From the UHGV virus genome UHGV-0147584: a stretch of DNA of 24,897 nucleotides; one strand, written 5' to 3'. The first letter of the stretch is position 1. Each line of letters starts with the position of its first letter. Source of the stretch: a virus. The position numbers were made by a program, and so were the translations under genes. The notes under the pieces were generated by a model. That model saw nothing but the letters and a program-made list of their open reading frames with translations. It was not told where the DNA came from and searched no databases. Positions 9,358 to 24,897 of the stretch are shown here, in pieces.

Positions 9358-9834
9358 TCATCCGGCAGTGTTGAAGATTTCCTGTTTCAGCGGAGCACCA
9401 TCAACAGCAAAGGTAAATTCTTTAGTTACCACTTCTTCATCGCCACCGTTCATAGCAACTTTAGAAATAAAGCCGTTGAAAGCGGTGCGAATACCAGTCT
9501 GTTTTGCTGCGTCAACATAGTATTCAATTTTAATCTGAATACGGGTTCCATCTTCGGCAGCCTTAATAAGACGCTCATGCACGGTATCCCCGGGAATATA
9601 ATTAACGGTCAGAGTCAGATCAGGAACGTTCAGTTTACCTACCAGCTTGCGGTTATACTGAGAAGAGAAGGATTTAACTTCTACAGTACCGCGCTCGATA
9701 CCAGTTTCAGGGAAACCAGCACACTCTTTAATTTCTTCATAGCTTTCATGATCGAGAGCGGTGTTAGTGGTATCGGCGTGATAGAACATACTTACCAGAC
9801 CACCAGTAAAAATATCTTTGAATTGTTGAGACAT
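9358..9834 (-). CDS. putative tail tube-fold protein (candidate major tail protein)
   Basis: 158-aa ORF with SD AAGGGG. A segment (GKLNVPDLTLTVNYIPGD...LIKAAEDGT...IEY) is paralogous to the 277-aa protein at 13552-14385. Ends in TGA followed by an in-frame extension and terminator. Confidence 0.5.
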   Translation of the reverse strand: MSQQFKDIFTGGLVSMFYHADTTNTALDHESYEEIKECAGFPETGIERGTVEVKSFSSQYNRKLVGKLNVPDLTLTVNYIPGDTVHERLIKAAEDGTRIQIKIEYYVDAAKQTGIRTAFNGFISKVAMNGGDEEVVTKEFTFAVDGAPLKQEIFNTAG

Positions 9835-9890: not shown

Positions 9891-12800
9891 TTATTTAGTT
9901 GCTTTCAGTTCGGCAATCTCTTTATGTAATGCTTCGATCTGCGCTTTATATTTGGCGTCCATTTCCTGCATAGCTTTGATGATTAAAGCATTGACAGCAG
10001 AGTTAGAAATAGTCTTGATTGCTTCTGGATGTTCTGGATCTTCGGTAGATTGAATACCTACTGCTTCCGGCAATACTTTTTCCAGATCCTGAGCAATAAT
10101 ACCTACTTCGCGTTTAATTACCGTGTCATCAGAAAGAGATTTAACTTTATCGTAGGTGTATACTTTCAGGGAGTTTACTTTCTCTAATGCACCGTCCTGT
10201 AATTCTTCCTTGTTAATTTTCAGACGAGAGTCAGAGCGAATGTAAACATCGTTAAAGCTACCGTTACGACCTGCCGTCATGTCACCGGATGCGTTAAAGT
10301 CAAAGACGGCATCATGAACATGGAGACGAACAAGAGCGTTACCGATAGTACCGCTAGGAACGTGTACACCCATTGCGGCGATATGATATTTACCTTGATG
10401 GGTTGCTTTCCAGATGTTATGAGCGGAATCGGTTGATTGCTGGCAGTCGACCTGAATACCGGAAGCACGATCACGCCAGCTAGCCCAACTACCACCAGCA
10501 ACGCTACCACGAATAAGACCATTACCGCCACCGGATACAGTGCCCGTTTCAAGGTGAATCATCTTACCGCCGAATTTCCAGACTTCGGCTTGTTTCTCAC
10601 CGCGCATACGCATAACACCAGCATCATCGCAGTACAACAGACCCAACTCTAAGCCGTTTGGATCTCTAAACCATAAATGCTTGTTACCAGTGCGCTTAAA
10701 CTCAATATCAGCACCATTCAGGGTGATATTGCCTCCAGTGTGGATTGCTTTAGGCTTAACAGTACCGTTAATAGCAAACTCGATTAATTCAGTACCAGGA
10801 CCGCCAGCACGTTGGGTATACCAGTGCCAACCGCTTTCATCAGCACATTCAAACACTTGTTTACGAGCATCAGCGCCCCATGCACGAATATTAAACGTAG
10901 AAGTTGCAGTACCTTTACCCCAGCGAATTTGTCCAGCAGCTTCTAAATCACCGAAGAATTTAGTTTTAATCGCACCAGTTGCTAAAGTACGTTCAGTGGT
11001 GAAGTGTGCACCTTTGCTATCGTCAAGCTGTAAGATATTATCACGAGCGTTATTGCTATCGCCCCAATGGTTAAACCGGAAGTAGTCGCGAGAATTTAAT
11101 CGACCAGCATCAAAGGTTAACATTCCTTTACCGACGTAAATATCACCAGCAAATCGAGCAGCACGGCTATCTCGTTCGAGAACTAATGCACCCTCGTTAC
11201 CATCACCACCTAAAGTAACTTTACCAGTCGTCAAATCGTAAATGAATGGTCGGTTGCCGTTCCAGCCACCAAATTTATCATTTTCGGCAGTTGAAAGAAG
11301 ATAAACTTTACCACCATCATTACGCCAGAATGCACCGTAGTTACCGTAAATCATACGGAATGCATCACTGTTAGCAGCTACATATTGTCCGTTTGAGTAA
11401 ACAATTTTTGTTTTACCAGTGGATAATGAAACTTGACCGTTCTCATCCAGTCTTACAGAGTTATTACCTTCCGTTAATTCATTTACTAACTGTACAGTGT
11501 TAGTAGTACCATCACCATAACCTAGATAACCCTGACGACGATTAGCACCAGAACGATAATCAAAGAATTCGATATAGTTACTTTGCCCGTCGCGGCGTTC
11601 CATTCTAATAGCGTTATTACCCTTAACAAAAAGGCGGTTTACAGTAACACCATTAAAATCAATTTTTAATTGATCCGCTGTATCAGTAACACCAGTAGCT
11701 AAACGATAGACACTACCTTCAACAACTTCATGCCAAATTGTTTCGGCTGATTTGCTACGGAATTTACGAAGATATTTTTTATTTGTATCAGTTGAGTTAT
11801 TCAGACTGATAATATCATATGTTCCTTGACCGTTATTATCGAACATCAACGTTCCGGCTTTGTTTTCGGTGTTGAACATCGTAATAACACGAGCATCAGT
11901 AACACCAACAGAAGGTTTAACGAGAGTTAATTCAGGAACATCATGTACTGTTAACGAAACATCACTAGTTTTACCATATTCGACAATAACGTTATCGGTA
12001 TAACGACCGTAGTTTACGTAAATGTCGTAGTTATCACCGGAAGTATTAACCGCAAATACTTGATGGACATTCAAAGAATTTCGACGATAAGCAGCAATAC
12101 TAACGCCTTTCGGGTTATTGTTACCGGAACGGATAACAATTTCTACAAAATCAACCTGATCATAGGAGTTAACGTTATAGCCGTTACCACCGAAGATACG
12201 AAGCATTACCATTCGACCATTCTGTGGGATCGTGGCGGTTGCAATCTTGAAGTATCCACGAGAAGCATCACCAGACGGAACAGACATTTTCACGTTCTTG
12301 ATGAACATCTGGTCAACTGCGGCCTTGCTATACACACCCAATTCATCAGGAGTCGGCTTATCACCTTCATGGTACATGCGATAGCTGAATCTCTTGTTAC
12401 CGTCCTTATCAAAGCCATAGGTTTTAACCTGAGATGAGCTAGACCCATAATGGAACTCAAAGCCGCGACCGTGTGCTTTACCGCCAGAATGAGGAATGTT
12501 AAGGATTAAGTTACCCCAGCCTTCGGCATTGTTCGGACGAAACGCACCAAAATAATCAAGGTTACGAGCACCAGCATCATCAAAATAGTTAGCGGTCTTG
12601 CTTAACAGATAGCCATGATGATAAGTGTTGGTATTCTTCTTGATGTAAAGAGCATCGTTGCTACCTTCAATACCATCAATTCGACGGTTAGCGGCTGCAA
12701 TCGCTGCATCTGCATCGGTCTTGTTTTTGTCTACCTTCGCGTTAATGGCGGTATGATTGCTATTAACAGTGTTGGTTAAGTTGGTGATCTTCGTATCAGC

Positions 12801-13478
12801 GTCTTTCTTGTTATTCGCTACCGTAGTTTCAATGGCTGATTTGTTAGCCGCAACGGTACTCGTTAAGCTGGAGATCTTAGAATCAGCATCAGACTTGTTA
12901 GCTGTAACGGTTTTGGTCATATTGCTAACATTGGTGTTGGTGGCATCAACACGGCTATTGATCGCGGTGTTATTGTCATTAACCGTAGTGGTTAAAGCTG
13001 AGATTTTATTGTCCGCGTCTCGTTTGTTATTCGCTACGGTAGTTTCAATAGCTGATTTGTTTGCCGCAACAGTGTTAGTTAAAGTGGTATGTTTGCTGTC
13101 AGCGTCGGTTTTATTTGCCGTAACTGTCTGGGTTAAGTTACTAACATTGGTGTTAGTAGCATCAATGCGCTTATTGGTTGCTGTATCTTTCGTGTTAATA
13201 GTGTTATTCAGTTCAGATTTAGCGGTAGCCAGAGCGTTAGCAGCTTCGGTTTTATTTGCCGCAATAACACGATCCGTGTTGGTTTTGTTTGTGTCTACTT
13301 TAGTGTTAAGTTCAGCGTGTTTTTCTGGGGAAACGCTGATTTGAACTACTGCGTTATTTTTGTCTTTCGTGTAAATTACGTGGTCGGCAAGGTTAATAGC
13401 TACCTCACCCTGTGCCAGTTGTTCCGGCGTTGGCTTTTTACCAGCCGTCTGTGTGCGTTTAAATTGGATTGATTGCAT
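9891..13478 (-). CDS. side / L-shaped tail fibre with C-terminal intramolecular chaperone (peptidase S74-like) domain
   Basis: 1195-aa ORF. Conserved fibre N-terminus (MQSIQFKRTQTAGKKPTPEQLAQGEVAINLADHVIYTKD), tandem shaft repeats, and a C-terminal ~114 aa beginning RSDSRLK that resembles the autocleaving chaperone of phage T5 pb1 / K1F endosialidase. Stop TAA. Confidence 0.8.
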   Translation of the reverse strand: MQSIQFKRTQTAGKKPTPEQLAQGEVAINLADHVIYTKDKNNAVVQISVSPEKHAELNTKVDTNKTNTDRVIAANKTEAANALATAKSELNNTINTKDTATNKRIDATNTNVSNLTQTVTANKTDADSKHTTLTNTVAANKSAIETTVANNKRDADNKISALTTTVNDNNTAINSRVDATNTNVSNMTKTVTANKSDADSKISSLTSTVAANKSAIETTVANNKKDADTKITNLTNTVNSNHTAINAKVDKNKTDADAAIAAANRRIDGIEGSNDALYIKKNTNTYHHGYLLSKTANYFDDAGARNLDYFGAFRPNNAEGWGNLILNIPHSGGKAHGRGFEFHYGSSSSQVKTYGFDKDGNKRFSYRMYHEGDKPTPDELGVYSKAAVDQMFIKNVKMSVPSGDASRGYFKIATATIPQNGRMVMLRIFGGNGYNVNSYDQVDFVEIVIRSGNNNPKGVSIAAYRRNSLNVHQVFAVNTSGDNYDIYVNYGRYTDNVIVEYGKTSDVSLTVHDVPELTLVKPSVGVTDARVITMFNTENKAGTLMFDNNGQGTYDIISLNNSTDTNKKYLRKFRSKSAETIWHEVVEGSVYRLATGVTDTADQLKIDFNGVTVNRLFVKGNNAIRMERRDGQSNYIEFFDYRSGANRRQGYLGYGDGTTNTVQLVNELTEGNNSVRLDENGQVSLSTGKTKIVYSNGQYVAANSDAFRMIYGNYGAFWRNDGGKVYLLSTAENDKFGGWNGNRPFIYDLTTGKVTLGGDGNEGALVLERDSRAARFAGDIYVGKGMLTFDAGRLNSRDYFRFNHWGDSNNARDNILQLDDSKGAHFTTERTLATGAIKTKFFGDLEAAGQIRWGKGTATSTFNIRAWGADARKQVFECADESGWHWYTQRAGGPGTELIEFAINGTVKPKAIHTGGNITLNGADIEFKRTGNKHLWFRDPNGLELGLLYCDDAGVMRMRGEKQAEVWKFGGKMIHLETGTVSGGGNGLIRGSVAGGSWASWRDRASGIQVDCQQSTDSAHNIWKATHQGKYHIAAMGVHVPSGTIGNALVRLHVHDAVFDFNASGDMTAGRNGSFNDVYIRSDSRLKINKEELQDGALEKVNSLKVYTYDKVKSLSDDTVIKREVGIIAQDLEKVLPEAVGIQSTEDPEHPEAIKTISNSAVNALIIKAMQEMDAKYKAQIEALHKEIAELKATK
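12735..13170 (-). repeat. two tandem ~216-bp (72-aa) repeats in the fibre shaft
   Basis: Protein repeat RIDATNTNVSNLTQTVTANKTDADSKHTTLTNTVAANKSAIETTVANNKRDADNKISALTTTV versus RVDATNTNVSNMTKTVTANKSDADSKISSLTSTVAANKSAIETTVANNKKDADTKITNLTNTV; DNA copies are near-identical over long stretches. Confidence 0.8.
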
Positions 13479-13551: not shown

Positions 13552-14385
13552 TCAGTATTCCCCGAAGTCGATTCGGTCTGTCTTAGCAACCGCATTAATT
13601 TCGGCTGGCGTAGGCTTCTCATTTGTTGTATAGACTTTAATCCATTCAGATTTTCCGTTGTCCTGAATATTTCGTACCCGCAAACGTGGAGCACCGGAAG
13701 TATTACAAGTTAATTGCCATGCGCCATGCTCATTAGCTTGAAGATGAATTAACGATGTATCAGCACCATAAGGATTAGTGCTAGCCGTTCCTTTGTAGGT
13801 TACGAAGCGGTTTCCTGTCAGAGATTCACTATCAATAGGACCACTGAAAGGATTTACACCAGCGCCCAGACCAAAATCACCCTGACGTAAGATACGGCCT
13901 TCGGTAGCAATACCCCTTGCAAGAATCCCGCCATCTGGTTCTAGTTTGAATTCCATAGTTACAGCTTTGTTATCACCACCACGAGTTTTATGGCTAGTGA
14001 CATAAGCATCATAGATGACATAGTAACCAGTGTTAGCAGCACTATAGCCAGAGTTAACGACATAGAACATTCTAAAGCGTAAAGGTGTTTTATCCTCTAC
14101 GGCTTTCATCAACATTGCTTGGTGTTCATCGTCAAGAACACGGTTTACTGTGAGCGTAGTCGGTTCAAGTTTGCGATAGCCAGCCAGCTTACCAGTCGCA
14201 TCATGATCATACTCTTCGTAAGTCTCGATCTCGGTTGATTCTGTTAGCGTAGGAAAGGCTGCGATGTTCTCCATACCACTAAAGCTAGGATCGAAAAAGT
14301 CGACCTGATTGTCTAGCTGGTTAGAGATCGACACTTCAACATGCGATCCCGTAAAAATATCTAAGTTATCATGCGTAATATTCAT
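13552..14385 (-). CDS. tube-fold tail protein (candidate major tail protein, lambda gpV position)
   Basis: 277-aa ORF with SD AAGGGGTAAT. About 34% identity over an ungapped 41-residue stretch with the 158-aa protein (TLTVN..D....L.KA.ED.T......Y). Ends TGA, then 3 sense codons and TAA. Confidence 0.5.
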   Translation of the reverse strand: MNITHDNLDIFTGSHVEVSISNQLDNQVDFFDPSFSGMENIAAFPTLTESTEIETYEEYDHDATGKLAGYRKLEPTTLTVNRVLDDEHQAMLMKAVEDKTPLRFRMFYVVNSGYSAANTGYYVIYDAYVTSHKTRGGDNKAVTMEFKLEPDGGILARGIATEGRILRQGDFGLGAGVNPFSGPIDSESLTGNRFVTYKGTASTNPYGADTSLIHLQANEHGAWQLTCNTSGAPRLRVRNIQDNGKSEWIKVYTTNEKPTPAEINAVAKTDRIDFGEY

Positions 14386-15241: not shown

Positions 15242-17242
15242 TCATTCAGCGGAGATGTGAAGAACTTTCAGAGCTTCCGGCTGTGCTACAACGTAGTCCA
15301 AATCTACAAAGATACGAGGCACTACCGCACCACGATCCCTATATGTAGTTAGATCCATGTCGAGTTCCAGACCTCCCCACTCACCGATAGTAATACCGGA
15401 GAAGTCACCCAGAACGATGTGGTCTGCCGGGATAACGCCAGAAGTAACTACTTCGTAACCAGCCAGTTTGCCGTTTTCGATGATATAACCGGAAACGCCG
15501 TTATCTTTCAGGGTAGATTCCAGTTCAGCAGCAGTTGCACCGCTCATCGCAAACTTGATCGCCTGAGCAGGAACGCCAGCGTCGGTCAGTGCTGCAATTT
15601 CTTTCAGGAAGTCTTTGTAAGAGAAAGCAGCTTTCTTGGTAACGCGGCTAGCGTCTACCAGTTGCTTAACCAGACCAGCCGGACCACGGTCGTTAGCTTT
15701 ATCAGACAGAATCAGTTGTTCCAGTTTGATGCGAACAGCTTTGTTAATGTGATCAGTGATCAGGGAAGCGATGCCGGGTACGGTTTTCAGCGACTGACGG
15801 CTGATCGGGTTGCCACCAGCAAAAGTTTTCGGAGACAGTTTCACGTTCGCAAATTCAGCTTTGCTTTCCGGTGCAGCACCGTTTTCATCAACGAAGCCGA
15901 AAGCGTCAACGCTGGATTTAGTCATTTTTGGAATAGCGGTCGGGGAGTTCAAGCCACTGTAAACAGTCACACCCAGACGACCCAGAACAGATTCCGGCAT
16001 CAGCATTTCGATGTAGGATTCAGTCATCAGTTTTTCGTCAGTGATAGCGGTCAGGTCGGCTTTGGTGTTACCAGCAGAAGCAGCACGCATAGCAGCAGCC
16101 GGAACGAATACAGAGCCACCGCGAGCAGCACGACCACGCTGCATTGCAGCACCAGCAGCCATAGCGGAATATTCAGCTTCGTTAGCACCCAGAGCAGCAC
16201 CATCTACCAGAGAGCGAATTACGTTGTTCAGGTCAAAAGTTTTTTCCATTTTAGAGTCCTTAATTTGTTCGTTATTACGTTGAGCATTGACGAGATTATT
16301 TAGTGCCTTAGTGCGGAATGCTTCCGGCGTCATGTCTTTAATTGCCAATGCGCGTTTCAATTCTTCGTCGTCAATATTTAGTTCCCGCGCGATTGCTCGG
16401 ATTTCTTCTTCGTCTTCTTCGGAACGTTCAGCCACTTCTTCGGTTTTTTCTTCTTCAACCGGAGCGGCTTCACGTTCTTCTTTTACTTCTTCTTCCCGAA
16501 CAGTTGAACTATCATCATCAACACTTTCAGGATGTTTAGCGTCTTTTCCGTCTTCGAGATTTTCATCTTCTTTATTCTCTTCAACTTGGCGCTCTTGAGT
16601 TTCTTCAACTTTCGGTTCTTTATTTTCTTCTACCGGAGTTTCTTCAACCTGAGCGGGTTCTTGTTCTTCTTTGATTTCTTCGATTTGTTCTTTAGTCATA
16701 TCGCGTTTAGCCCCCAAATTAACTGTGATAGTATTTAGAGAGCGATTTAAACCGACCGAATCATCGGCAGGGACCGTGACCCACGAAATTTCGTGAGGAA
16801 TCCATTTAGAAACAATGAGTTGCGATTTAGCGTAGTCGATGTGATATTCTTTAATGTCATAACCGACAGAAATTTTTTCCATCGTACCTTCAATGACTTT
16901 ATTACGAATATCATTAGCCAAAGTCCCATGCTTAGAGAATTTAACCAGAGCACGGCCTACGTTATCCGCATCGATTCGAGCGTTACAAACGACACCAATG
17001 TGATTATCGAAATTATGATTGAACAGCAACGGAGCGTTATTATTCAGACGAGACAGATCAACCGCTTCCGGTGTATGTACCAGAATTTCATCTAATACCA
17101 CCATTTCTTGATTTTGCTCATCCCAAAATTGGCGCTGATAAGGCTGTGTACTTGAGAAAGCAATTTCAAACTCGTATTGATCGTTATGCCCTTCGTTAAT
17201 AACTCCACCGTAACCGTTAAGATCGCGGCGAAATTTAAGCAT
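15242..17242 (-). CDS. prohead protease - acidic scaffold - major capsid protein (HK97 fold) encoded as one ORF
   Basis: 666 aa. N-terminal ~180 aa carry HK97-family prohead protease signatures (LLFNHNFDNHIG; KISVGY...HEISWVTVPADDSVG). Residues ~180-330 are an extremely acidic low-complexity linker. The C-terminal ~330 aa look like an HK97-fold capsid protein. SD AAGGTGA. Stop TGA. Confidence 0.75.
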   Translation of the reverse strand: MLKFRRDLNGYGGVINEGHNDQYEFEIAFSSTQPYQRQFWDEQNQEMVVLDEILVHTPEAVDLSRLNNNAPLLFNHNFDNHIGVVCNARIDADNVGRALVKFSKHGTLANDIRNKVIEGTMEKISVGYDIKEYHIDYAKSQLIVSKWIPHEISWVTVPADDSVGLNRSLNTITVNLGAKRDMTKEQIEEIKEEQEPAQVEETPVEENKEPKVEETQERQVEENKEDENLEDGKDAKHPESVDDDSSTVREEEVKEEREAAPVEEEKTEEVAERSEEDEEEIRAIARELNIDDEELKRALAIKDMTPEAFRTKALNNLVNAQRNNEQIKDSKMEKTFDLNNVIRSLVDGAALGANEAEYSAMAAGAAMQRGRAARGGSVFVPAAAMRAASAGNTKADLTAITDEKLMTESYIEMLMPESVLGRLGVTVYSGLNSPTAIPKMTKSSVDAFGFVDENGAAPESKAEFANVKLSPKTFAGGNPISRQSLKTVPGIASLITDHINKAVRIKLEQLILSDKANDRGPAGLVKQLVDASRVTKKAAFSYKDFLKEIAALTDAGVPAQAIKFAMSGATAAELESTLKDNGVSGYIIENGKLAGYEVVTSGVIPADHIVLGDFSGITIGEWGGLELDMDLTTYRDRGAVVPRIFVDLDYVVAQPEALKVLHISAE

Positions 17243-17287: not shown

Positions 17288-18799
17288 TTAGGGATCGGTT
17301 TGAGAAGGGTTATCCTTGCTCTCACCATCAACGATAATATTTAGTGCGCTCTTTTCGGCTTGAATCTCTGAGAATACTTTTTCAGGATCATCACCACGTT
17401 CAAGAATAACAGCAGTACGTGATTTAAGACCATTTTGAATTAAAGCAATCTCGGCGTTTACGTCTTTAATAGGATCGACGGATTCAAAACGCGGACGAAT
17501 AATAGTAGTGTTATCGATAATATGAGGAATTGCAGTAATACGAATCGGAACAATACCACGCGCGGAATAATGGCGTAGATATGCTTCGAAAATTGGCAAT
17601 ACCACTGTTTCAATTAATTTGTTTTGCAGTGCTTTAATGCGGTTACGCTGAGTTAATTCACCAAAACGTGCGGCTGAGTAGTTGATCTGTGAACAATCTC
17701 CTGTTAAGCCCTGTTTGAACACGCCTAAGCCCATTGATACGCTAGTGAACATCGCATCATTGAAGCTGTTAAAGTCATCGCCATTTTGCGATGATTGAAT
17801 GCTCTTGATTGTTGCCCCTTCCGGCAATTCCTGAATAGTACCCGGTGCAAAGTCCTGTACTACTTCCGGCGCTTGATATTGTTCATCCTCTTCACCAGTA
17901 TCAAAATCGTCACCAGAATCTTTAGGACGTTCGATAAAGCCCATAGAACTAGCCGCAATACGTTTCTGGACGATCGCGGTTTCGCGGAACGCTTCTTGAT
18001 GCGCAATATCCTTAATCACTGGCAGGAAGTCAGTCACACCACGTAAACTTTCCGCGCACAGTGGCTGGTAGTAGTGGCACACCTGAGAAGCATCTACGCG
18101 ATAATTTTCGCCAGTGTAGGTCTGAGTCAGTAGATTGATTTTTCTAAACCAGTATGCTACAGGGCGCATTGTGTCTACGTCATACTCAATCCCCTGATAG
18201 ATCGCACGTTCTTTGCTTATTTCACGACTAAGCGACCAGTCGCACCTATCAGCAGACAGAATAGAAACTTGTAACTCATTGTTCTCTTTGGTTAAAACGA
18301 TGAAGCATTCTCCACCCTGAACACGTTCAGATTCTGCCATTGCCAGCATTTCACGGAAGTTAAAGCGACCGTTGCGAGAGAAGCGTTTAGCACTCTGCGC
18401 CCACTTCCAGAAAGCATTCTCGATCTGCTTATTCAGTGCGGTGTCAAGTTTGCCATTTGATTTAACGATTGATGGTTTCGGATCAAGCCCCGTACCAACA
18501 ACTTGGTCAACGATATACTGCTTGTATCGCTTACCTACAGCATTGTTTATAGCCAGAGTACGACCCTGATCATAAAGGCGCTTACCGTTCGATTTGAGAG
18601 CCTTATTGAAGGTTCCTGTAATGGTGTCTTGTTGAAGCTGTCCATCAATGCGATCACCGACTAAGCCCAAAGAACGCTTAGACAAATCTTTCTGGAATTT
18701 TTCTACTTGTTTGTCGATAAAGATTTTTTGTTGTTGCTGGCGGTGATTAGTTTTAACTGGAGTTTCTACCGCCTTTTTGCGTCGAAAAAGATTAAACAT
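17288..18799 (-). CDS. portal protein (lambda gpB-like position)
   Basis: 503-aa ORF between the gpW-position gene and the capsid gene; SD AAGGGGTAAATC; size and position typical of a portal. Stop TAA. Confidence 0.8.
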   Translation of the reverse strand: MFNLFRRKKAVETPVKTNHRQQQQKIFIDKQVEKFQKDLSKRSLGLVGDRIDGQLQQDTITGTFNKALKSNGKRLYDQGRTLAINNAVGKRYKQYIVDQVVGTGLDPKPSIVKSNGKLDTALNKQIENAFWKWAQSAKRFSRNGRFNFREMLAMAESERVQGGECFIVLTKENNELQVSILSADRCDWSLSREISKERAIYQGIEYDVDTMRPVAYWFRKINLLTQTYTGENYRVDASQVCHYYQPLCAESLRGVTDFLPVIKDIAHQEAFRETAIVQKRIAASSMGFIERPKDSGDDFDTGEEDEQYQAPEVVQDFAPGTIQELPEGATIKSIQSSQNGDDFNSFNDAMFTSVSMGLGVFKQGLTGDCSQINYSAARFGELTQRNRIKALQNKLIETVVLPIFEAYLRHYSARGIVPIRITAIPHIIDNTTIIRPRFESVDPIKDVNAEIALIQNGLKSRTAVILERGDDPEKVFSEIQAEKSALNIIVDGESKDNPSQTDP

Positions 18800-18809
18800 G
18801 ATTTACCCC

Positions 18810-19307
18810 TTATCGCGTAAGACGTAATTTGATATTTTTAATAGGGCTAATTCCCTGTTTACGTCGTTCGGCTTGAATTACTTTAGATAACTGACGTTCA
18901 TAATCGACTTTTAGAGTCTGGAGAACACCCAATGACTCATAGGCGAAAGTATTCCCTTTCACGGTCATTGCAGATAATGCGGCTTCGTCCCCAGATAAAC
19001 GGGCGAAAATAACTTGCTCGATTAAGGCGATAGTTTCCCGCAGATACTGTTTTTTGGATTGTTTGGCAAAGACTGGTAAAACAGTTAATTCCTGCATTGA
19101 TACCAGTTCTTCATCAAAAGTTATTACGATGGTATATTTACCCTCGGCAAAATCTAAGGTTTTAATCTCGTGATTAGCCGGAGAATCATCAACCTGATAA
19201 ATGATACCTTTATTATTATTTCCTACCTGAATTGTTACACCCTCTTCATTCGCCAGCGTGATTTTTTCGCCTTTACGAATTACTAAGGGAATTAGTTCTA
19301 AACTCAT
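18810..19307 (-). CDS. hypothetical protein at the lambda gpW position (possible head-tail joining function)
   Basis: 165-aa ORF between terminase and portal, SD AAGGGGTAATT. Only weak resemblance of its C-terminus to gpW-like proteins. Confidence 0.4.
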   Translation of the reverse strand: MSLELIPLVIRKGEKITLANEEGVTIQVGNNNKGIIYQVDDSPANHEIKTLDFAEGKYTIVITFDEELVSMQELTVLPVFAKQSKKQYLRETIALIEQVIFARLSGDEAALSAMTVKGNTFAYESLGVLQTLKVDYERQLSKVIQAERRKQGISPIKNIKLRLTR

Positions 19308-19379: not shown

Positions 19380-21284
19380 TTAGAACGATGTTACCCAGCT
19401 ACGGCCTCTATTTGGGCGTCTGGCGATGTTTTTACGTTGTGGTCGTGTGATTGGCTTATTTTCTTCGATTTGCTCGTCAGATTGCGATTTAGGAGCTTTT
19501 ACGGGTTCTTCGACAACACGGTTTAAGCTGTCTTTCATTGCGATGAGTTTATCCCATGACATTTTTGAAAGGACGTAGCGAGAAGCCGCTGTAGCATACA
19601 CGGCGCAGTCGAGCGCCTCGTTCCTAACGCCTGGGTTCTTTACCCATCTCACGCCAGTAGTAGTACGCTTGACAGATTCACTTAAAAGCTGATCGAGATA
19701 ATCATCAGGAACGGTGTCTGATATTTCTAAGCCAATATGAGGATTATCTTTCAGGTTCCTAGCCAACATTTCACGAAATGCAGTTTTACCCACATTAACA
19801 CCCAACATAAGCAATTCATGACCACCTGTGCGGGTAGGTTTAACCGGAATGATCGGAGCGTTACCAGCAGAACTACCTTTGATAGCGTGTAAGTTCTTCC
19901 ACTTGCCGCAAATACGGTATCCAGCTTGAGTGAATCGACCGTTCGATGTATCAAGGAAGCTGGCGAGCATAGGAACACGATCACCCGATACAGTAGTAAA
20001 TCTGGTTTTATGGAAGTTGATTAATCTATCCCATACAGGGGATTCATATCGTTCACAGTTATGATCGTAAAAGCTGCGGTGATCCAGAATATAAATCTTA
20101 TCCTTTGCCACGCCCATGATTGTAGTTTCTGCGCGATCTAATTGCTGGTCAGTACCCGCACACAAGAAAATCACGTCATCAGGGATATTCTCGATAGAAA
20201 CATCTGTTTTGAGTTGTTCCAGTTCATTTGCTTCTACTGCCGTGTCCTGATCGTCGTATACCTTGCCTAACACGGTGTTATAAAATGATTGTAAATCAAA
20301 GGATTGCCACGCATGACTAAAATCAACCACACAAGCGCGGATCGTGCTGAAAGGTGAATACAGACGGCTGATCCAGAATCCTGCTACTTCACTTTCACGG
20401 GTTGCTCTCCACTCGCCTTGTGCTACTGCCCTGATTCGTTCCCCTTCGGTCCATGCGTTCTTACAGTGGGGGCAAATATAACGAGCGGTATCAGGATCGG
20501 GTAAGTTCTTACCATCGATGTTACGCCATTCAAACTGTACGTTTTCCCACTCGATCACCTGGTGTCTACCGCAATGAGGACACGGAACAAAAAACATACG
20601 CATATCACTTGATAACCATTGCTGGTTAATGCTTCCGAGCTTACTGGTCGGGGTACTGGATACGACTAATCGGCCTTCATCGCCAAAGGTAGTTAAACGG
20701 TTAGCAGCCAGTGCCACCGGATCACCTTCTTCTGAGGCTGTAGCAGCATCGATTTCGTCAAGCAATCCAACCTTTGCGGTCTTACCGCGTAGGGTTGATG
20801 GACTAGTAAGCGATACCATATAAAGGAAGTGGTTTGATTTGAGCTGGAGCTGATTGTTGTTATTAACAGAATTGCGATCATTCTTGTCTGTAACCACGTC
20901 TTTTAATGCATCACATGCTTCGATAGACGGTCGGATCTTACCCGCGAGATATTGAGACATTTCTTTAGCGGTTGATTGTCCGATAATCATATTGCATGGA
21001 TCGTTAGCCATCTGGTTAAACAGGATGCCGTTCAAGATGGTAGTCTTTCCGATCTGCGCACTGGTCATCAGAACATACTTTTTCTTGTTCTCAAGGAAAG
21101 GAGCATCAATCATACCTTTCTGGAATGACAGCAATTTAACTTTATCCCCAGCTTGAGGACCATCTACCAGCACCATATTCGCTTCGCACCATTCAGAAGG
21201 AAGGAGCTTAGGCGGTGGCGTAATATATTTGGCTGCATTTTTGAGAATCTTTTTTAATTTGGCCTTATTTGAAATCAGTTTCAT
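19380..21284 (-). CDS. terminase large subunit, lambda gpA family
   Basis: 634-aa ORF. Walker A-like TSAQIGKTT, paired CPHCG...CPHC motifs, [11 protein letters not shown] and [11 protein letters not shown] segments closely resembling lambda gpA as recalled. SD GAGGGT. Stop TAA. Confidence 0.9.
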
Positions 21285-21369
21285 GTAATTACCCTCATTA
21301 CGAAATATGAAGGTATTTATTAAATTGTTGATATTTTGATAAATACGGGTATTAATTAAAGGGGGTTGT
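21285..21369. promoter_or_regulatory. divergent promoter region between terminase and the plus-strand HTH gene
   Basis: 85-bp AT-rich spacer with direct TTGATA repeats, near-palindrome AATACGGGTATT, and TATTAAT upstream of the plus-strand SD AAAGGGGG. No strong consensus promoter toward terminase. Confidence 0.4.
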
Positions 21370-21972
21370 ATGCTAATTAATCAACAACAAAGAGATGAAT
21401 TAGAATTAGCCTTGTCTTGTACCGATCATGAATATCGTTTGCCAGTTAAGCATAAGCATTTAAAAACCGACTACACTACATCTGGCTTTAGTCGTGAGGA
21501 AGCGAAAGAGATTTTAATAGAGTTTTACCGCGATAATGGTTATACAGACGTTCACAACTTCTTTAAGAAGCATAGAACATCACATACAGAGTTTCGGAGA
21601 GTCCGAGATTGGTTTGATTTTGATATCAAGCGTTATTATCGAGTGGATGACGGTCCTATCTATCGGTTGCAGTGGACACCGATCAGGGAAGTGTTGAAAC
21701 AGAAGAGATTGAATCACGCCATTACACGCTATCGTAACGAGGCTTTCAAGAAAGGCTATGGTGATACAAGGGAACTATTCGTTGAACTCGCTAACGTGAA
21801 ATATAGCCACTATTACAACGATCCTACAGGGTTCTTCGAAGTGCTTCGCAAGGTTGATATTAGTCGGGGTACATATTATTCACGGCTGAGGAAGTACGGG
21901 ATTAAGGTAGAGTTCTTTATGTCGGTTGACGACTCACCCATGTTCAAGATAAAATCTAAGTCCTCTAAATAA
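21370..21972 (+). CDS. hypothetical DNA-binding protein with C-terminal HTH-like motif
   Basis: 200-aa ORF with SD AAAGGGGG. C-terminal [20 protein letters not shown] looks like a helix-turn-helix; paralogous to the following small gene. Stop TAA. Confidence 0.5.
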
Positions 21973-22007
21973 TATTGAGAAATCACTATTGTTTGGAGGA
22001 AACTACT

Positions 22008-22235
22008 ATGACTACTAAAGCTACTCGCGGTCGCCCTGCCCGTTTTAACGCTGAACAGATGGCTGATATTGCCTACGCTTACTATACAGCGGATCGTGGT
22101 AAGGAAGCGAAAGAACAGATTCTTAGTGAACATGGGATCTCAATCGCCCAATTCTATAAGAATATGAAGAAGTTAGACATTAAATTCTATGTTCAGATCG
22201 GTGATGGTCAGATCGTAGAAGCAACAGGTTTTTGA
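22008..22235 (+). CDS. small DNA-binding protein (RGRP motif plus HTH-like C-terminus)
   Basis: ATG 22008 is preceded by GGAGGA at 7 nt (the ORF track begins at an upstream TTG). Sequence MTTKATRGRPARF...HGISIAQFYKNMKKLDIKF. Stop TGA. Confidence 0.5.
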   Translation: MTTKATRGRPARFNAEQMADIAYAYYTADRGKEAKEQILSEHGISIAQFYKNMKKLDIKFYVQIGDGQIVEATGF

Positions 22236-22250
22236 GTTTTGATTCTCTTT

Positions 22251-22280
22251 GCCACTCTTCGGAGTGGCTTTTTTGTATGT
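22251..22280 (+). terminator. intrinsic terminator (plus strand)
   Basis: GCCACUC-uucg-GAGUGGC followed by UUUUUUGUAUGU, 15 nt after the stop of the small plus-strand gene. Confidence 0.75.
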
Positions 22281-22395
22281 AAAACAATCGGCGCAAAACT
22301 GCGCTCATTTCTAAGTTGAGTCCAAATCTGGACTGATCTATAGATGCATCCAAATCTGGAGGGATGCGCTTAAAGTTCAGCGCATCTACAGATAC

Positions 22396-22420
22396 AAAAA
22401 AGCCCCTGAAATTCAGGGGC
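22396..22420 (-). terminator. intrinsic terminator (minus strand) after the Rha-like gene
   Basis: Minus-strand RNA GCCCCUGAA-u-UUCAGGGGC followed by UUUUUUGUAUCU. Confidence 0.7.
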
Positions 22421-22428
22421 AAAAATTA

Positions 22429-23256
22429 TTACAGTCCGAAGACTTCCAGAGAGCCAGCATTCTGACGAATCAGCAAAGCAGTGTTATTAATGATTGCTCG
22501 TGAGTTGTTCGGCTGTGGCAATTTCAAAGTTGCGGCCTTTTCTTCTTCAAGCAATCCGAGTTTTACGAGATGCGGGATAGCATCAGCAGTGAACTCGATC
22601 TGACCGTGTGCCGACATACGAGCGAACATATAGCCAGGAGGAAGCAGATCATAGCCTTTAGGCTTACCAGAAGCATCCAGACGACGCTCAAGAACACCAG
22701 CAGCACATAAACCTTTCAGAATCATTTGTACCGTCGTAGAGCCTCGTTTTTCGCCTAATAAGCGGCTAAGACTGTGTGTGTCGATAGCTTTACGAACATG
22801 CAATTCAACCAGTTGTTTCTTTTCTTGAATCAGTTGTTCGTTTGCGGCTTCCAATTCCATTGCCTCACGAATCCAGTCGAGCTTAGTCATGTTTGCGTAA
22901 GGGTTGATTTGCTGAGAACGCAGTTTTTCATTTTCTTCTTTCAGTCGCTTCCATTCCTGAATAACAACCATTCGACGCTTAACATCGTAACCAGTGACAA
23001 GAGTCAGCGTCATTTCTTCGTCTAAGTGATATTCGGTTTGTTCACGTCCACACTGATCAAGATAGGTGCGCTCAAAACTGAGCACATCTAATTCCAGAGC
23101 ATCGAGCATGGATTTAATATCACGTTTAACGTTTTTGTGTTCTTTTCCGGTAAATTCAGCGATCTGACGAGAAGACATGGTCAGCGGTTTGGTGTTATCA
23201 ACAACCAGAGACACGGAAGCAGTTTTAGCAGTATTCATAACGGTAACAGTATTCAT
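22429..23256 (-). CDS. phage regulatory protein Rha / antirepressor
   Basis: N-terminal SSRQIAEFTGKEHKNVKRDIKSML...TLVTGYDVKRRMVVIQEWKRL matches the Rha-family signature as recalled; coiled-coil middle and a C-terminal domain of unknown function. SD AAGGGGAA. Stop TAA. Confidence 0.75.
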   Translation of the reverse strand: MNTVTVMNTAKTASVSLVVDNTKPLTMSSRQIAEFTGKEHKNVKRDIKSMLDALELDVLSFERTYLDQCGREQTEYHLDEEMTLTLVTGYDVKRRMVVIQEWKRLKEENEKLRSQQINPYANMTKLDWIREAMELEAANEQLIQEKKQLVELHVRKAIDTHSLSRLLGEKRGSTTVQMILKGLCAAGVLERRLDASGKPKGYDLLPPGYMFARMSAHGQIEFTADAIPHLVKLGLLEEEKAATLKLPQPNNSRAIINNTALLIRQNAGSLEVFGL

Positions 23257-23299
23257 AGTATTAATTCCCCTTAAACGGTTTAATGATTTGGTCCTCCTA

Positions 23300-23321
23300 G
23301 TTCCGGCAGCATCACCGGAAC
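23300..23321. promoter_or_regulatory. intergenic hairpin between the 110-aa gene and the Rha gene
   Basis: GTTCCGG-cagcatca-CCGGAAC, 7-bp stem. A T-rich run follows on the plus strand only, so orientation and role are ambiguous. Confidence 0.4.
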
Positions 23322-23345
23322 AATTTTATTTATAATAGAAATTTA

Positions 23346-23678
23346 TTACCAATCGATTTCTACTTGGTCTTCTTCATAATAAGGAATCGCATATTCATAA
23401 CGCCAGTTTTCGATGATTTCACGTTCTTCATTAGTAAGAAGGTGATTGCTAACTGGAGTCGCATTGTGATTACCAGCTTCGAATTGTTCGCGAACTTCCA
23501 GCATTGCATGAATACCAGTTAAGGACATCAGATCAAACGGAACATGCATACTACGGGAGATTGTTTCACGGGATACGCCCCAATCATTTTCTACATGGCT
23601 AGGGCTTACAGAAACGGTTTTGCCGGAGATTTTAACAGTCCAGTCATACAGGGATTTAGTGATGGTAAATTCTTTCAT
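23346..23678 (-). CDS. hypothetical protein
   Basis: 110-aa ORF, ATG preceded by AGAGGA; no family recognised. Confidence 0.5.
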   Translation of the reverse strand: MKEFTITKSLYDWTVKISGKTVSVSPSHVENDWGVSRETISRSMHVPFDLMSLTGIHAMLEVREQFEAGNHNATPVSNHLLTNEEREIIENWRYEYAIPYYEEDQVEIDW

Positions 23679-23798
23679 GTTACATCCTCTTTACAAATCT
23701 AGGTCAAATAGGTTCAAAATTGTCAAGTGCAATAATCATAAAAAAGTCAGAAAATTTTGTCAACACCCCTTGACAAGACGCCAAAGGGTTGACCTAAC
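23679..23798. promoter_or_regulatory. promoter/operator region with repeated TTGACA-like hexamers and a 20-bp palindrome
   Basis: TTGTCAA at 23720-23726 and 23757-23763, TTGACAA at 23770-23776, TTGACC at 23789-23794. TTGTCAAcaccccTTGACAA is a perfect 7-bp inverted repeat with 6-bp spacer. Lies between the 150-aa and 110-aa genes. Confidence 0.5.
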
Positions 23799-24251
23799 TT
23801 ACAGCATATCTAAGCCTTCATCGTAACCGTAGAAGCCATTCTGAGAAGAGAAACAGATTGGCGCGTAGTCGTCGTCATCTTCGTCTTGTTCATCTCGTTC
23901 TGGGGCTTCCTGAGCGGGTTGTTTACCATAATCAGCCATAATCTGGTCAAGATCGGCGATCCCATAGTAAGAGCCTAAATCAACGTCATATTCACGAACA
24001 TCAAACGGCAGGTCATCACGAACAATAATTGCCGGAATGTTGTTGTATTGTTCACGACCTTCATCAGTAAAGCAGTCTACGATCACCGTAGGGCGACCAT
24101 TACGTTTAAGAGCATAGAAAGCAGTTGAGAAATTGGAGTCTTCGGAATGACGAATGATGTTATAACCACGATTAGCGAAAACATGCATCATAGCCAGATT
24201 ATCATCATGGTTCAGACCCAGAAGAATGAAAGGAGTTTTAGTATTGATCAT
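23799..24251 (-). CDS. hypothetical protein with strongly acidic C-terminal tail
   Basis: 150-aa ORF, SD AGAGGA. Alternating hydrophobic strands (FILLGL, YNIIRH, TVIVDCF, AIIVRD) suggest an alpha/beta fold; C-terminal ERDEQDEDDDDY. No family recognised. Confidence 0.5.
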   Translation of the reverse strand: MINTKTPFILLGLNHDDNLAMMHVFANRGYNIIRHSEDSNFSTAFYALKRNGRPTVIVDCFTDEGREQYNNIPAIIVRDDLPFDVREYDVDLGSYYGIADLDQIMADYGKQPAQEAPERDEQDEDDDDYAPICFSSQNGFYGYDEGLDML

Positions 24252-24502
24252 AGTGGAAATCCTCTAAAAAAGTGAATCAAAGTAAGTTCACTATTATTTA
24301 TAACGAGAAATTTTTGTCTAATTTGAAAGGAATTGGTATTCAGTCGGCTTCGCCTCCTTCATAGATTTTGATTAAATCATCATCAAAACGAAGAAGTATC
24401 TTTAGAATATAAGAATCTTTCTTTTGGAGAAATAATAATCAGGAAGCAATTTAGCAACCGAAGGTTGCAATCCCGAAGGGATACCAATACCTTTCATGAT
24501 CA

Positions 24503-24750
24503 TTAAAGTGATCTAGAATCATCTAGTAACCAGTTAACTACTATTATCTTCAAAGTGATTATTACTATCTTTCTAGAATCAGTTAGTAACTAATTTAAAA
24601 TCCCTTTCAAGAAAATCCTTTCAGAAGTGATTCTCGATGCCACGCAGTGGCGTCGCAGACGTTTGAGAGTGAGCGAAGCGAGCGAGCAAACTAGTTAATT
24701 CCTTCTAAGACCATCTAGTATCATCTAGTTTAAATTAGTGTTACTAGAAG
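24503..24750. repeat. iteron-like direct and inverted repeats built on CTAG cores in noncoding DNA
   Basis: aaagtgatctagaatcatctagtaac (24505-24530), aaagtgatt...tctagaatcagttagtaac (24552-24590), atctagtatcatctagtt..gttactag (24713-24746), plus palindromes GTTAAC and AACTAGTT. No ORF in the track covers this region. Confidence 0.6.
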
Positions 24751-24897
24751 TAATTGGTTAGCGCTTCGCGCAGTCGGGCTACGCCCTCCTAATATCTTTT
24801 TGGTTATTTGTTGTTTTTGGTTTTACACATGAGCGTAGCGAATGTGTTATATAATATCTATGCACGCCCGATCCCCCGTTTTTGCCCCTCACTAAGT

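Follow-up and report, generated by a model that had tools for sequence, protein, structure and literature searches.

Organization of the locus

The DNA analysed here, a stretch of 24,897 nucleotides of the virus genome UHGV-0147584 (hereafter the window), covers most of a siphovirus-type prophage, and our subject is a pair of small open reading frames (ORFs), ORF200 and ORF75, that lie beside its large terminase gene, terL. The prophage carries a long structural operon on the minus strand, transcribed leftward, and terL (19380-21284, minus strand) is the first gene of this operon. Its product is a large terminase subunit of the lambda gpA type, matching the Pfam families GpA_ATPase (E = 2.1e-56) and GpA_nuclease (E = 7.3e-46) as well as phrog_15 (E = 5e-140). 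An intergenic region of 85 bp (21285-21369) parts the start of terL from the divergent ORF200 (200 amino acids (aa); 21370-21972, plus strand), which has an ATG start and the ribosome-binding site AGGGGG. ORF75 (75 aa; 22008-22235, plus strand) follows, with an ATG start and the ribosome-binding site GGAGG; the program-made ORF for this gene begins upstream, at a TTG at 21975. Both genes lie where a first-pass annotation of this DNA had placed them, divergent from the terminase gene on the plus strand. Their operon ends at an intrinsic terminator (22251-22278, plus strand), in which GCCACTC-TTCG-GAGTGGC is followed by a T run, and is convergent with a Rha/Ant-like gene (22429-23256, minus strand; phrog_63, E = 2.5e-20).

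Paralogy and predicted structure of ORF200 and ORF75

The first-pass annotation had described the two adjacent proteins as paralogs that share a motif, which sits at residues ~160-185 in the C-terminal half of ORF200. The relationship is stronger than was seen there. BLASTP pairs ORF75 with residues 40-97, in the N-terminal half of ORF200 (E = 3e-4). With hhalign, using profiles built from alignments of 24 ORF200 homologs and 14 ORF75 homologs, ORF75 matches both the N-terminal half (95.4%, E = 1.8e-8) and the C-terminal half (95.0%, E = 3.8e-8) of ORF200, and the two halves match each other (75.9%, E = 2.3e-5). Because ORF75 is linked in this way with both halves, and the halves with each other, ORF200 is the ORF75 unit duplicated in tandem within one chain. 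A third paralog, ORF60 (59-61 aa; MARPVKFTRE...GID.S.F.KL.KKY), has a single domain and is found beyond the window, where it heads a rightward operon past a large non-coding region (L015:14398-14580 and L001:24166-24345, both plus strand; L numbers are our handles for the fetched loci). ORF60 matches the ORF200 family and the ORF75 family at 95% in hhalign, and it directly precedes the gene for a coiled-coil protein of 313-338 aa. With two copies in ORF200, one in ORF75 and one in ORF60, the lineage holds four copies of the domain. All three paralogs are basic (isoelectric points of 9.0-9.5; 9.5 for ORF200 and 9.0 for ORF75).

The earlier assignment of both proteins to the helix-turn-helix (HTH) class was borne out by structure prediction and by sub-threshold matches to HTH families. 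AlphaFold2 models of ORF200 and ORF75, with predicted local distance difference test (pLDDT) values of 76.4 and 75.4, consist of HTH-plus-hairpin units, each made of three helices and a beta-hairpin. In ORF200 a conserved N-terminal helix (aa 5-16, DELELALSC) precedes unit 1 (aa ~39-99, nucleotides 21484-21666) and unit 2 (aa ~131-193, nucleotides 21760-21948). The single unit of ORF75 has helices at aa 15-27, 32-41 and 46-55 and a hairpin at aa 60-72. The third of these helices is the putative recognition helix, whose sequence ISIAQFYK is invariant; among the 14 ORF75 homologs the invariant residues of this region are S45, I46, A47, Q48, Y50 and K51.

The RGRP sequence noticed at the start of the small protein proved to be a fixed feature of it, with R7, G8, R9, P10 and R12 (TRGRPAR) invariant across the same 14 homologs. 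ORF75 has the R-G-R-P core by which AT-hooks are recognised, within an N-terminal arm that is basic and, in the model, disordered (pLDDT < 50 for residues 1-8). As modelled, however, RGRP would be the N-terminal arm of an HTH domain and not a free AT-hook. ORF60 holds the related sequence MARP(V)KF. A GRPR arm is present in Hin, and many TetR proteins have GRPR N-termini, to which the (R)GRP arm of ORF75 may be compared.

A narrow family without a database model

Neither ORF200 nor ORF75 has a match above threshold in Pfam, PHROGs or NCBIfam. When family members were scanned one by one, the only recurrent sub-threshold Pfam families were those of the homeodomain-like HTH clan (HTH_Tnp_1, HTH_23, HTH_28 and HTH_7), with best E-values of 0.003-0.03, under the gathering scores. 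Hhalign matched the family to the N-terminus of AcrR at 59% and to the Hin DNA-binding domain at 26%. Searches against the three kinds of model that had been suggested for these proteins were negative: no small terminase match was found in Pfam, PHROGs or NCBIfam (E <= 0.1), no Mor match in Pfam or PHROGs, the architecture also differing from that of Mor, and no likeness to Xis or AlpA-type excisionases in Pfam or PHROGs, the excisionase and HTH_17/MerR profiles and the strand-helix-turn-helix-wing topology of Xis being missing as well. Assignment to some unrelated family was not obtained either, as no curated family was matched above threshold. ORF200 and ORF75 are thus most likely DNA-binding-type HTH proteins, judging by model and sequence, of a family undescribed in databases. 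The family has no Pfam, PHROG or NCBIfam model, while its kind, that of HTH regulators, is already known.

The resemblance to homeodomain-like HTH domains with a basic arm (HTH_7, HTH_Tnp_1, HTH_23 and TetR_N) is weak in both profile and fold. Like these, each unit has three short helices of which the third is likely the recognition helix. Unlike these, it carries an extra conserved C-terminal beta-hairpin, and the proteins stand alone, without a catalytic or ligand-binding domain. In having two tandem HTH units in one chain, ORF200 resembles Tc3, CENP-B and Myb R2R3.

In a word-indexed search ORF200 yielded 42 clusters and ORF75 yielded 20; every one is named hypothetical and comes from E. 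coli, Shigella, Salmonella or Proteus. An exhaustive protein profile search with ORF75 gave 4 matches among 1.84 billion representatives, and a scan of 185,579 species genomes gave one weak match, to a TetR-like protein (TetR-type N-terminus). No match to the region, ORF200, ORF75 or ORF60 was found in 50,697 cultured phage records by DNA and protein searches, nor to the family in a metagenome scan; the ORF75 profile found spurious matches only among PDB sequences, and a literature search for the prophage type returned nothing relevant. The locus is carried by 54 of 5426 complete E. coli genomes.

A Nu1-like small terminase gene beyond the window

The first-pass annotation saw no obvious small terminase subunit (TerS) and proposed either that the subunit is encoded elsewhere or that one of the two DNA-binding proteins has assumed a role in packaging recognition or late regulation. 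Inside the window its observation stands, as no ORF there matches a TerS profile. For the phage as a whole it does not, and the first of its two alternatives is what we found. As a reference we annotated the whole ~36-kb prophage of E. coli EC416 (L001/L002; NZ_AP027404.1, 3144060-3180005). This prophage carries, 7.7 kb from terL, a minus-strand gene for a 184-aa protein that matches phrog_57, "terminase small subunit", with E = 2.6e-11. Its ortholog in a remote locus, L048, matches phrog_57 at 1e-23 and phrog_141, also TerS, at 2.5e-11. Of 17 members of the family, 10 have a sub-threshold match to Pfam Phage_Nu1 (best E = 3.7e-5), and hhalign aligns lambda Nu1 with the family over Nu1 residues 2-125 (93%, E = 3.3e-7). 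Against PDB, the family profile finds the TerS chains 6hn7_B, 1j9i_A (the DNA-binding domain of lambda Nu1) and 7lw0_A at E = 0.08-0.63, with a series of unrelated epimerase chains ranking above them (E ~0.008). At its N-terminus the protein has a winged HTH like that of Nu1; it also has a coiled segment, EKLRRE, and an acidic tail. Its isoelectric point is 4.4, and some members of the family are already named "terminase small subunit" in NCBI and UniRef. By its sequence, this Nu1-like protein is the predicted TerS of the phage: a canonical small terminase elsewhere in the genome, the first half of what the first-pass annotation had named as contradicting its proposal.

The gene lies outside the window on the minus strand, the strand of terL (L015:16306-16860 and L001:27785-28339). 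In L015, which is 96% identical to window positions 22386-24897, it is situated ~5.4 kb to the right of ORF75 and ~3.2 kb past the window end, and it is the last phage gene before a host gene. In tblastn searches of all fetched loci it was present in every related locus that extends far enough, 5-8 kb from terL and past the right window end. Upstream of it, a conserved block (L015:16876-17200) contains the GC-rich, partly symmetric sequence GTGCAGCCCACCAGCGCGGTCGCTACGCGAC, and this block is a plausible cos candidate, its position being as in lambda.

ORF200 and ORF75 do not have the attributes of a small terminase. The TerS architecture, with a DNA-binding domain, a helical oligomerisation core and a TerL-binding tail, is absent from their AlphaFold models, which contain no long coiled coil, and they are not placed as TerS genes are, co-oriented with terL, upstream of it and by cos. 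Lambda gpNu1 (PF07471) is likewise of the DNA-binding HTH type, and its gene too lies close to one for a gpA-type terminase. ORF200 and ORF75 nevertheless differ from it in showing no sequence similarity, in lacking a coiled-coil or self-assembly region and in being transcribed divergently.

The nearest cultured relative by TerL (44% identity), phage DCP80 (L013, PQ671644.1), has a Nu1-like gene 22 kb from terL and no homolog of ORF200 or ORF75. Its record, of 141 kb, is classed as Straboviridae (Gaprivervirus); the first ~26 kb are a lambda-like head-tail-lysis module related to the prophage, and the record may be a chimeric assembly.

Promoter elements between terL and ORF200

Two elements resembling a -10 box stand in the intergenic region: GTATTTA at 21313-21319, which reads TAAATAC toward terL, and TAAATAC at 21340-21346, directed toward ORF200. 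Both are invariant in 6 diverged relatives. Among 27 distinct intergenic sequences, GTATTTA is found in 26, at 26-29 nt from the terL ATG, and TAAATAC in 23, at 16-26 nt from the ORF200 ATG. Because each holds a fixed distance to its own gene, whereas the spacer that parts them can be anything from 0 to 36 nt long, they are two independent -10-like promoter elements. The same observations rule out the inverted repeat as the operator of a single dimer. A promoter scan found no consensus sigma-70 promoter in 21285-21369 (no match of at least 9/12). In L048 a TAAATAC-type element is kept before terL and before the ORF200-like gene, though the two genes are not adjacent there, and the related sequence GATAAATAAT is located ~30 nt upstream of the TerS start. 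An (A/G/T)ATAAATAC element thus occurs 16-30 nt upstream of the start codons of terL, ORF200 and TerS.

A different sequence, CGTTATAAATA, is the one 11-mer that all seven diverged relatives have in common in their non-structural region. It occurs upstream of a 150-aa gene, of ORF60 and of a 94-aa gene, and in part upstream of the TerS gene; in the window it is found at 24295-24305 and, with one mismatch, at 23232-23242 and 23392-23402. It overlaps a good sigma-70-like promoter of the 150-aa gene (TAGACA-16-AATAAT) and could, from its distribution, be a promoter or operator element.

Linkage to terL

In the window lineage the arrangement is strict: ORF200 is divergent from terL and followed by ORF75 in ~45/45 loci, and this order is kept down to 40% identity, across E. 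coli, Salmonella and Proteus. The alleles tell a different story. There are two TerL types, >93% or ~58% identical to the TerL of the window, and either type adjoins ORF200 alleles of 86-98% identity without co-variation. This free combination of ORF200 alleles with two TerL alleles argues against a specific TerL partnership. TerL alleles (window 19380-21284 versus L015:8011-9915) also recombine freely with those of ORF75, Rha, ORF60 and TerS; mosaicism is strong in this lineage, and one junction falls in or close to the gap between terL and ORF200.

The remote locus L048 shows the pair in another setting. From TerL, Rha and a 205-aa protein, all on the minus strand, the order continues through a non-coding region with iterons to ORF200-like, ORF75-like, 66-aa, ORF60 and 377-aa genes (plus strand noted for all but the 66-aa gene) and then TerS (minus strand). 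The ORF200/ORF75 cassette is thus 3 kb from terL and, together with ORF60, heads an early rightward operon. Identities to the window lineage are 55% for TerL, 23% for the ORF200-like protein, 29% for the ORF75-like protein, 75% for ORF60 and 53% for TerS. Because the pair does not co-vary with TerL, is relocated in L048 and is missing from DCP80, it behaves as part of a regulatory module, and its adjacency to terL is a rearrangement of one lineage.

We also noted that the ORF200-like gene of L048 (L048:10001-10513) has an in-frame TGA, which is CGA in L010, reflecting a pseudogene or a sequencing error. A reverse-transcriptase-like gene adjoins TerS in L048 (14624-16333, plus strand; phrog_2825, E = 2.5e-85), and in L010 the ORF75-like gene is followed by two paralogous proteins of ~200 aa (1096-1692 and 1858-2481) that look AP2/HNH-like by eye.

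Repeat regions and iterons

Two repeat regions, at 22281-22395 and 24503-24750, had been proposed as binding targets of the pair, which now seems unlikely for both: the first is an insert that varies among relatives, and iteron type goes with another protein. The first region corresponds to a non-coding insert at 22272-22400 with small hairpins (GCGCAAAACTGCGC, two copies of TCCAAATCTGGA, and GATGCGC...GCGCATC). It is present in single copy in 12 of the 5426 E. coli genomes, as against 54 carriers of the locus, and in L004, L007, L008 and L019 the gap between ORF75 and the next gene is only ~80-100 bp. A feature variable in this way (12 of 54 carrier genomes) is an unlikely target. Rfam gave nothing meaningful for 21000-24897, the insert included.

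Next to the insert, an inverted iteron pair, AAAAAAGCCCCTGAA / ATTCAGGGGCAAAAAT (22397-22428), doubles as terminator of the Rha/Ant-like gene. The main arrays, which are lineage-specific, are found in the large non-coding region of ~1.3 kb that occupies window positions 24252-24897 and continues beyond (L015:13015-14397). The 13-mer iteron of the window lineage, TTCAGGGGCAAAA, has ~9 copies in the L015 non-coding region just past the window end, and a further site is listed at 24879-24889. Other lineages have AGTGTAGGT, GCTAGGGAT or ACTAGAAAA; GTGTAGG is also listed. Co-variation is perfect between the iteron class and the protein of 313-338 aa whose gene follows ORF60: this protein is at least 57% identical within a class and at most 28% identical between classes. 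No such co-variation is seen with ORF200, ORF75 or ORF60, and L015 and L001 have different iterons with ORF200 proteins that are 93% identical. The 313-338-aa protein is a likely replication initiator or specificity protein, and the paralogs are unlikely iteron binders.

The second proposed region consists of four TCTAGAATCATCTAGTA-like repeats (24512-24737), which are common to L015 and L018 and in part to L001. Another repeat, AATCC(C)TTTC (window 24600-24625), is present 3-6 times in the non-coding region of most lineages (L001, L003, L004, L008 and L011), the majority of copies pointing the same way. It recurs whatever the iteron type and is absent in L007.

Neighbouring genes

Downstream of terL, the leftward structural operon encodes, on the minus strand, a head-tail-joining-like protein of 165 aa (18810-19307), a portal of the lambda family (17288-18799) and a protease-capsid fusion (15242-17242), as well as tail proteins. 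A 1195-aa fibre-like gene (9891-13478, minus strand), which has Peptidase_S74 and Gp34_trimer domains in relatives, is flanked by two minus-strand genes (9358-9834 and 13552-14385) that both match the major-tail-protein family phrog_158, an odd position for a fibre gene, within the tail-tube region. At the far prophage end a 559-aa large serine recombinase is encoded (phrog_95, E = 3.1e-58). The integration target is hicB in EC416, and other hosts have the prophage in a ycdX-like gene with a PHP domain; the loci concerned are L001/L002 and L015:17204-17629. The prophage annotation showed no recognisable repressor of the cI type, no replication gene and no excision factor.

Discussion

We favour the view, with a probability of roughly 0.55, that ORF200 and ORF75 are sequence-specific DNA-binding phage regulators of a narrow HTH family that belong to the regulatory (early) module of the prophage and not to packaging. 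According to this model, each HTH unit would use helix 3 and its arm to read a short stretch of DNA, and ORF200 would act as a covalent pseudo-dimer that reads a bipartite site. Since the recognition helix of ORF75 is invariant, its target site may be expected to be conserved throughout the lineage. The pair would control phage promoters, and the best candidate targets would be the TAAATAC-type promoters, devoid of a -35 element, of terL, of the pair's own operon and of the TerS gene. TAAATAC/TTATAAATA promoters are possibly the sites of regulation, and control of them would make the pair late-gene or switch regulators. Of the two roles for a DNA-binding protein that the first-pass annotation had put forward, packaging recognition is disfavoured, and that of a late or more general regulator is preferred.

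Several points weigh against this view. The families are tiny, and no homolog has a known function, hence we infer the regulatory function, together with DNA binding and the target sites, from the class of fold and the context of the genes. That the pair strictly adjoins terL in the window lineage would fit a packaging-related accessory role. The TAAATAC elements could be mere parts of core promoters that are recognised by factors of the host or others, and if the ORF200 promoter is itself of a late TAAATAC type, the pair may be late proteins and not activators of late genes.

A partial parallel for such regulators is provided by the immI region of phage P22, in which Arc and Mnt are paralogous small DNA-binding regulators encoded beside an antirepressor gene. 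As an analogy only, ORF200 and ORF75 are likewise small paralogs next to an Ant/Rha-type gene of a temperate enterobacterial phage. Arc and Mnt, however, have a ribbon-helix-helix and not an HTH fold, ORF200 and ORF75 are convergent with the Ant-like gene, and a Proteus relative keeps the pair without an Ant/Rha gene.

The adjacency to terL invites explanations from packaging. One is that ORF200, ORF75 or both bind or bend cos DNA, as IHF does at lambda cosB, and aid assembly of the Nu1-like TerS/gpA holoenzyme; the proteins are modelled as being of a DNA-binding type, and terL and TerS share their type of promoter element, which suggests co-expression. We consider this rather unlikely, as the pair shows no co-variation with TerL alleles, has moved to an early operon away from terL in L048, is missing from DCP80, the closest cultured relative in both TerL and TerS, and is ~5 kb from the conserved cos-like block, which adjoins TerS. 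That ORF200 (or ORF75) is itself the small subunit, in place of a Nu1-type protein, was suggested by its HTH fold, its position beside terL and the lack of a TerS gene inside the window. This idea is largely refuted. The same genomes conserve the Nu1-like TerS together with a cos-like site, which leaves a stand-in small terminase unsupported, and neither protein matches a TerS profile or has, in the models, a coiled coil, an oligomerisation segment or an acidic TerL-binding tail; the divergent transcription and the relocated cassette point the same way. Packaging recognition in general gains no positive support from these findings or from the profile searches, in which Mor and Xis were not matched either.

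Roles outside packaging also have to be considered. The repeat arrays near the pair, the inverted iterons downstream of ORF75 and the iteron array that directly precedes the ORF200-like gene in L010 and L048 might point to replication or partition proteins acting on iterons (window 24252 to the end and beyond), yet this is highly improbable given that iteron classes track the 313-338-aa protein and none of the three paralogs. A recombination directionality factor, or an excision cofactor for the large serine recombinase, would be welcome in a prophage with a 559-aa serine integrase and no annotated directionality factor, and small basic proteins with a Hin-like GRP arm might seem suited to such a task. 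The known directionality factors of large serine integrases bind the integrase rather than DNA and are not known to form a single family. The genes discussed here are far from int and att, encode proteins without sequence similarity to Xis or AlpA-type excisionases and have three paralogs, more than such a role needs; we regard this role as very unlikely. With a similarly low probability one may speculate that ORF200, by itself or jointly with ORF75, confers promoter specificity as a sigma-like or sigma-appropriating factor and steers RNA polymerase to the -35-less (A/G/T)ATAAATAC promoters. The late promoter of phage T4 is TATAAATA, which the (A/G/T)ATAAATAC element resembles.

At present the result is mainly an annotation correction and an experimental lead. 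The apparent anomaly of a gpA-type phage without a small terminase is gone, as this phage does have a Nu1-like one. Its TerS gene is parted from terL by the whole regulatory and replication region, which is unusual for lambda-type packaging genes and is seen alike in DCP80. The family marks a coherent, uncultured group of serine-integrase prophages in E. coli, Salmonella and Proteus. If it controls the -35-less TAAATAC promoters, it would offer a simple handle on late-gene control in this group, and if the sigma-like alternative were true, two tandem HTH units would constitute a late-transcription factor of a new, minimal kind in a temperate siphovirus of enterobacteria.

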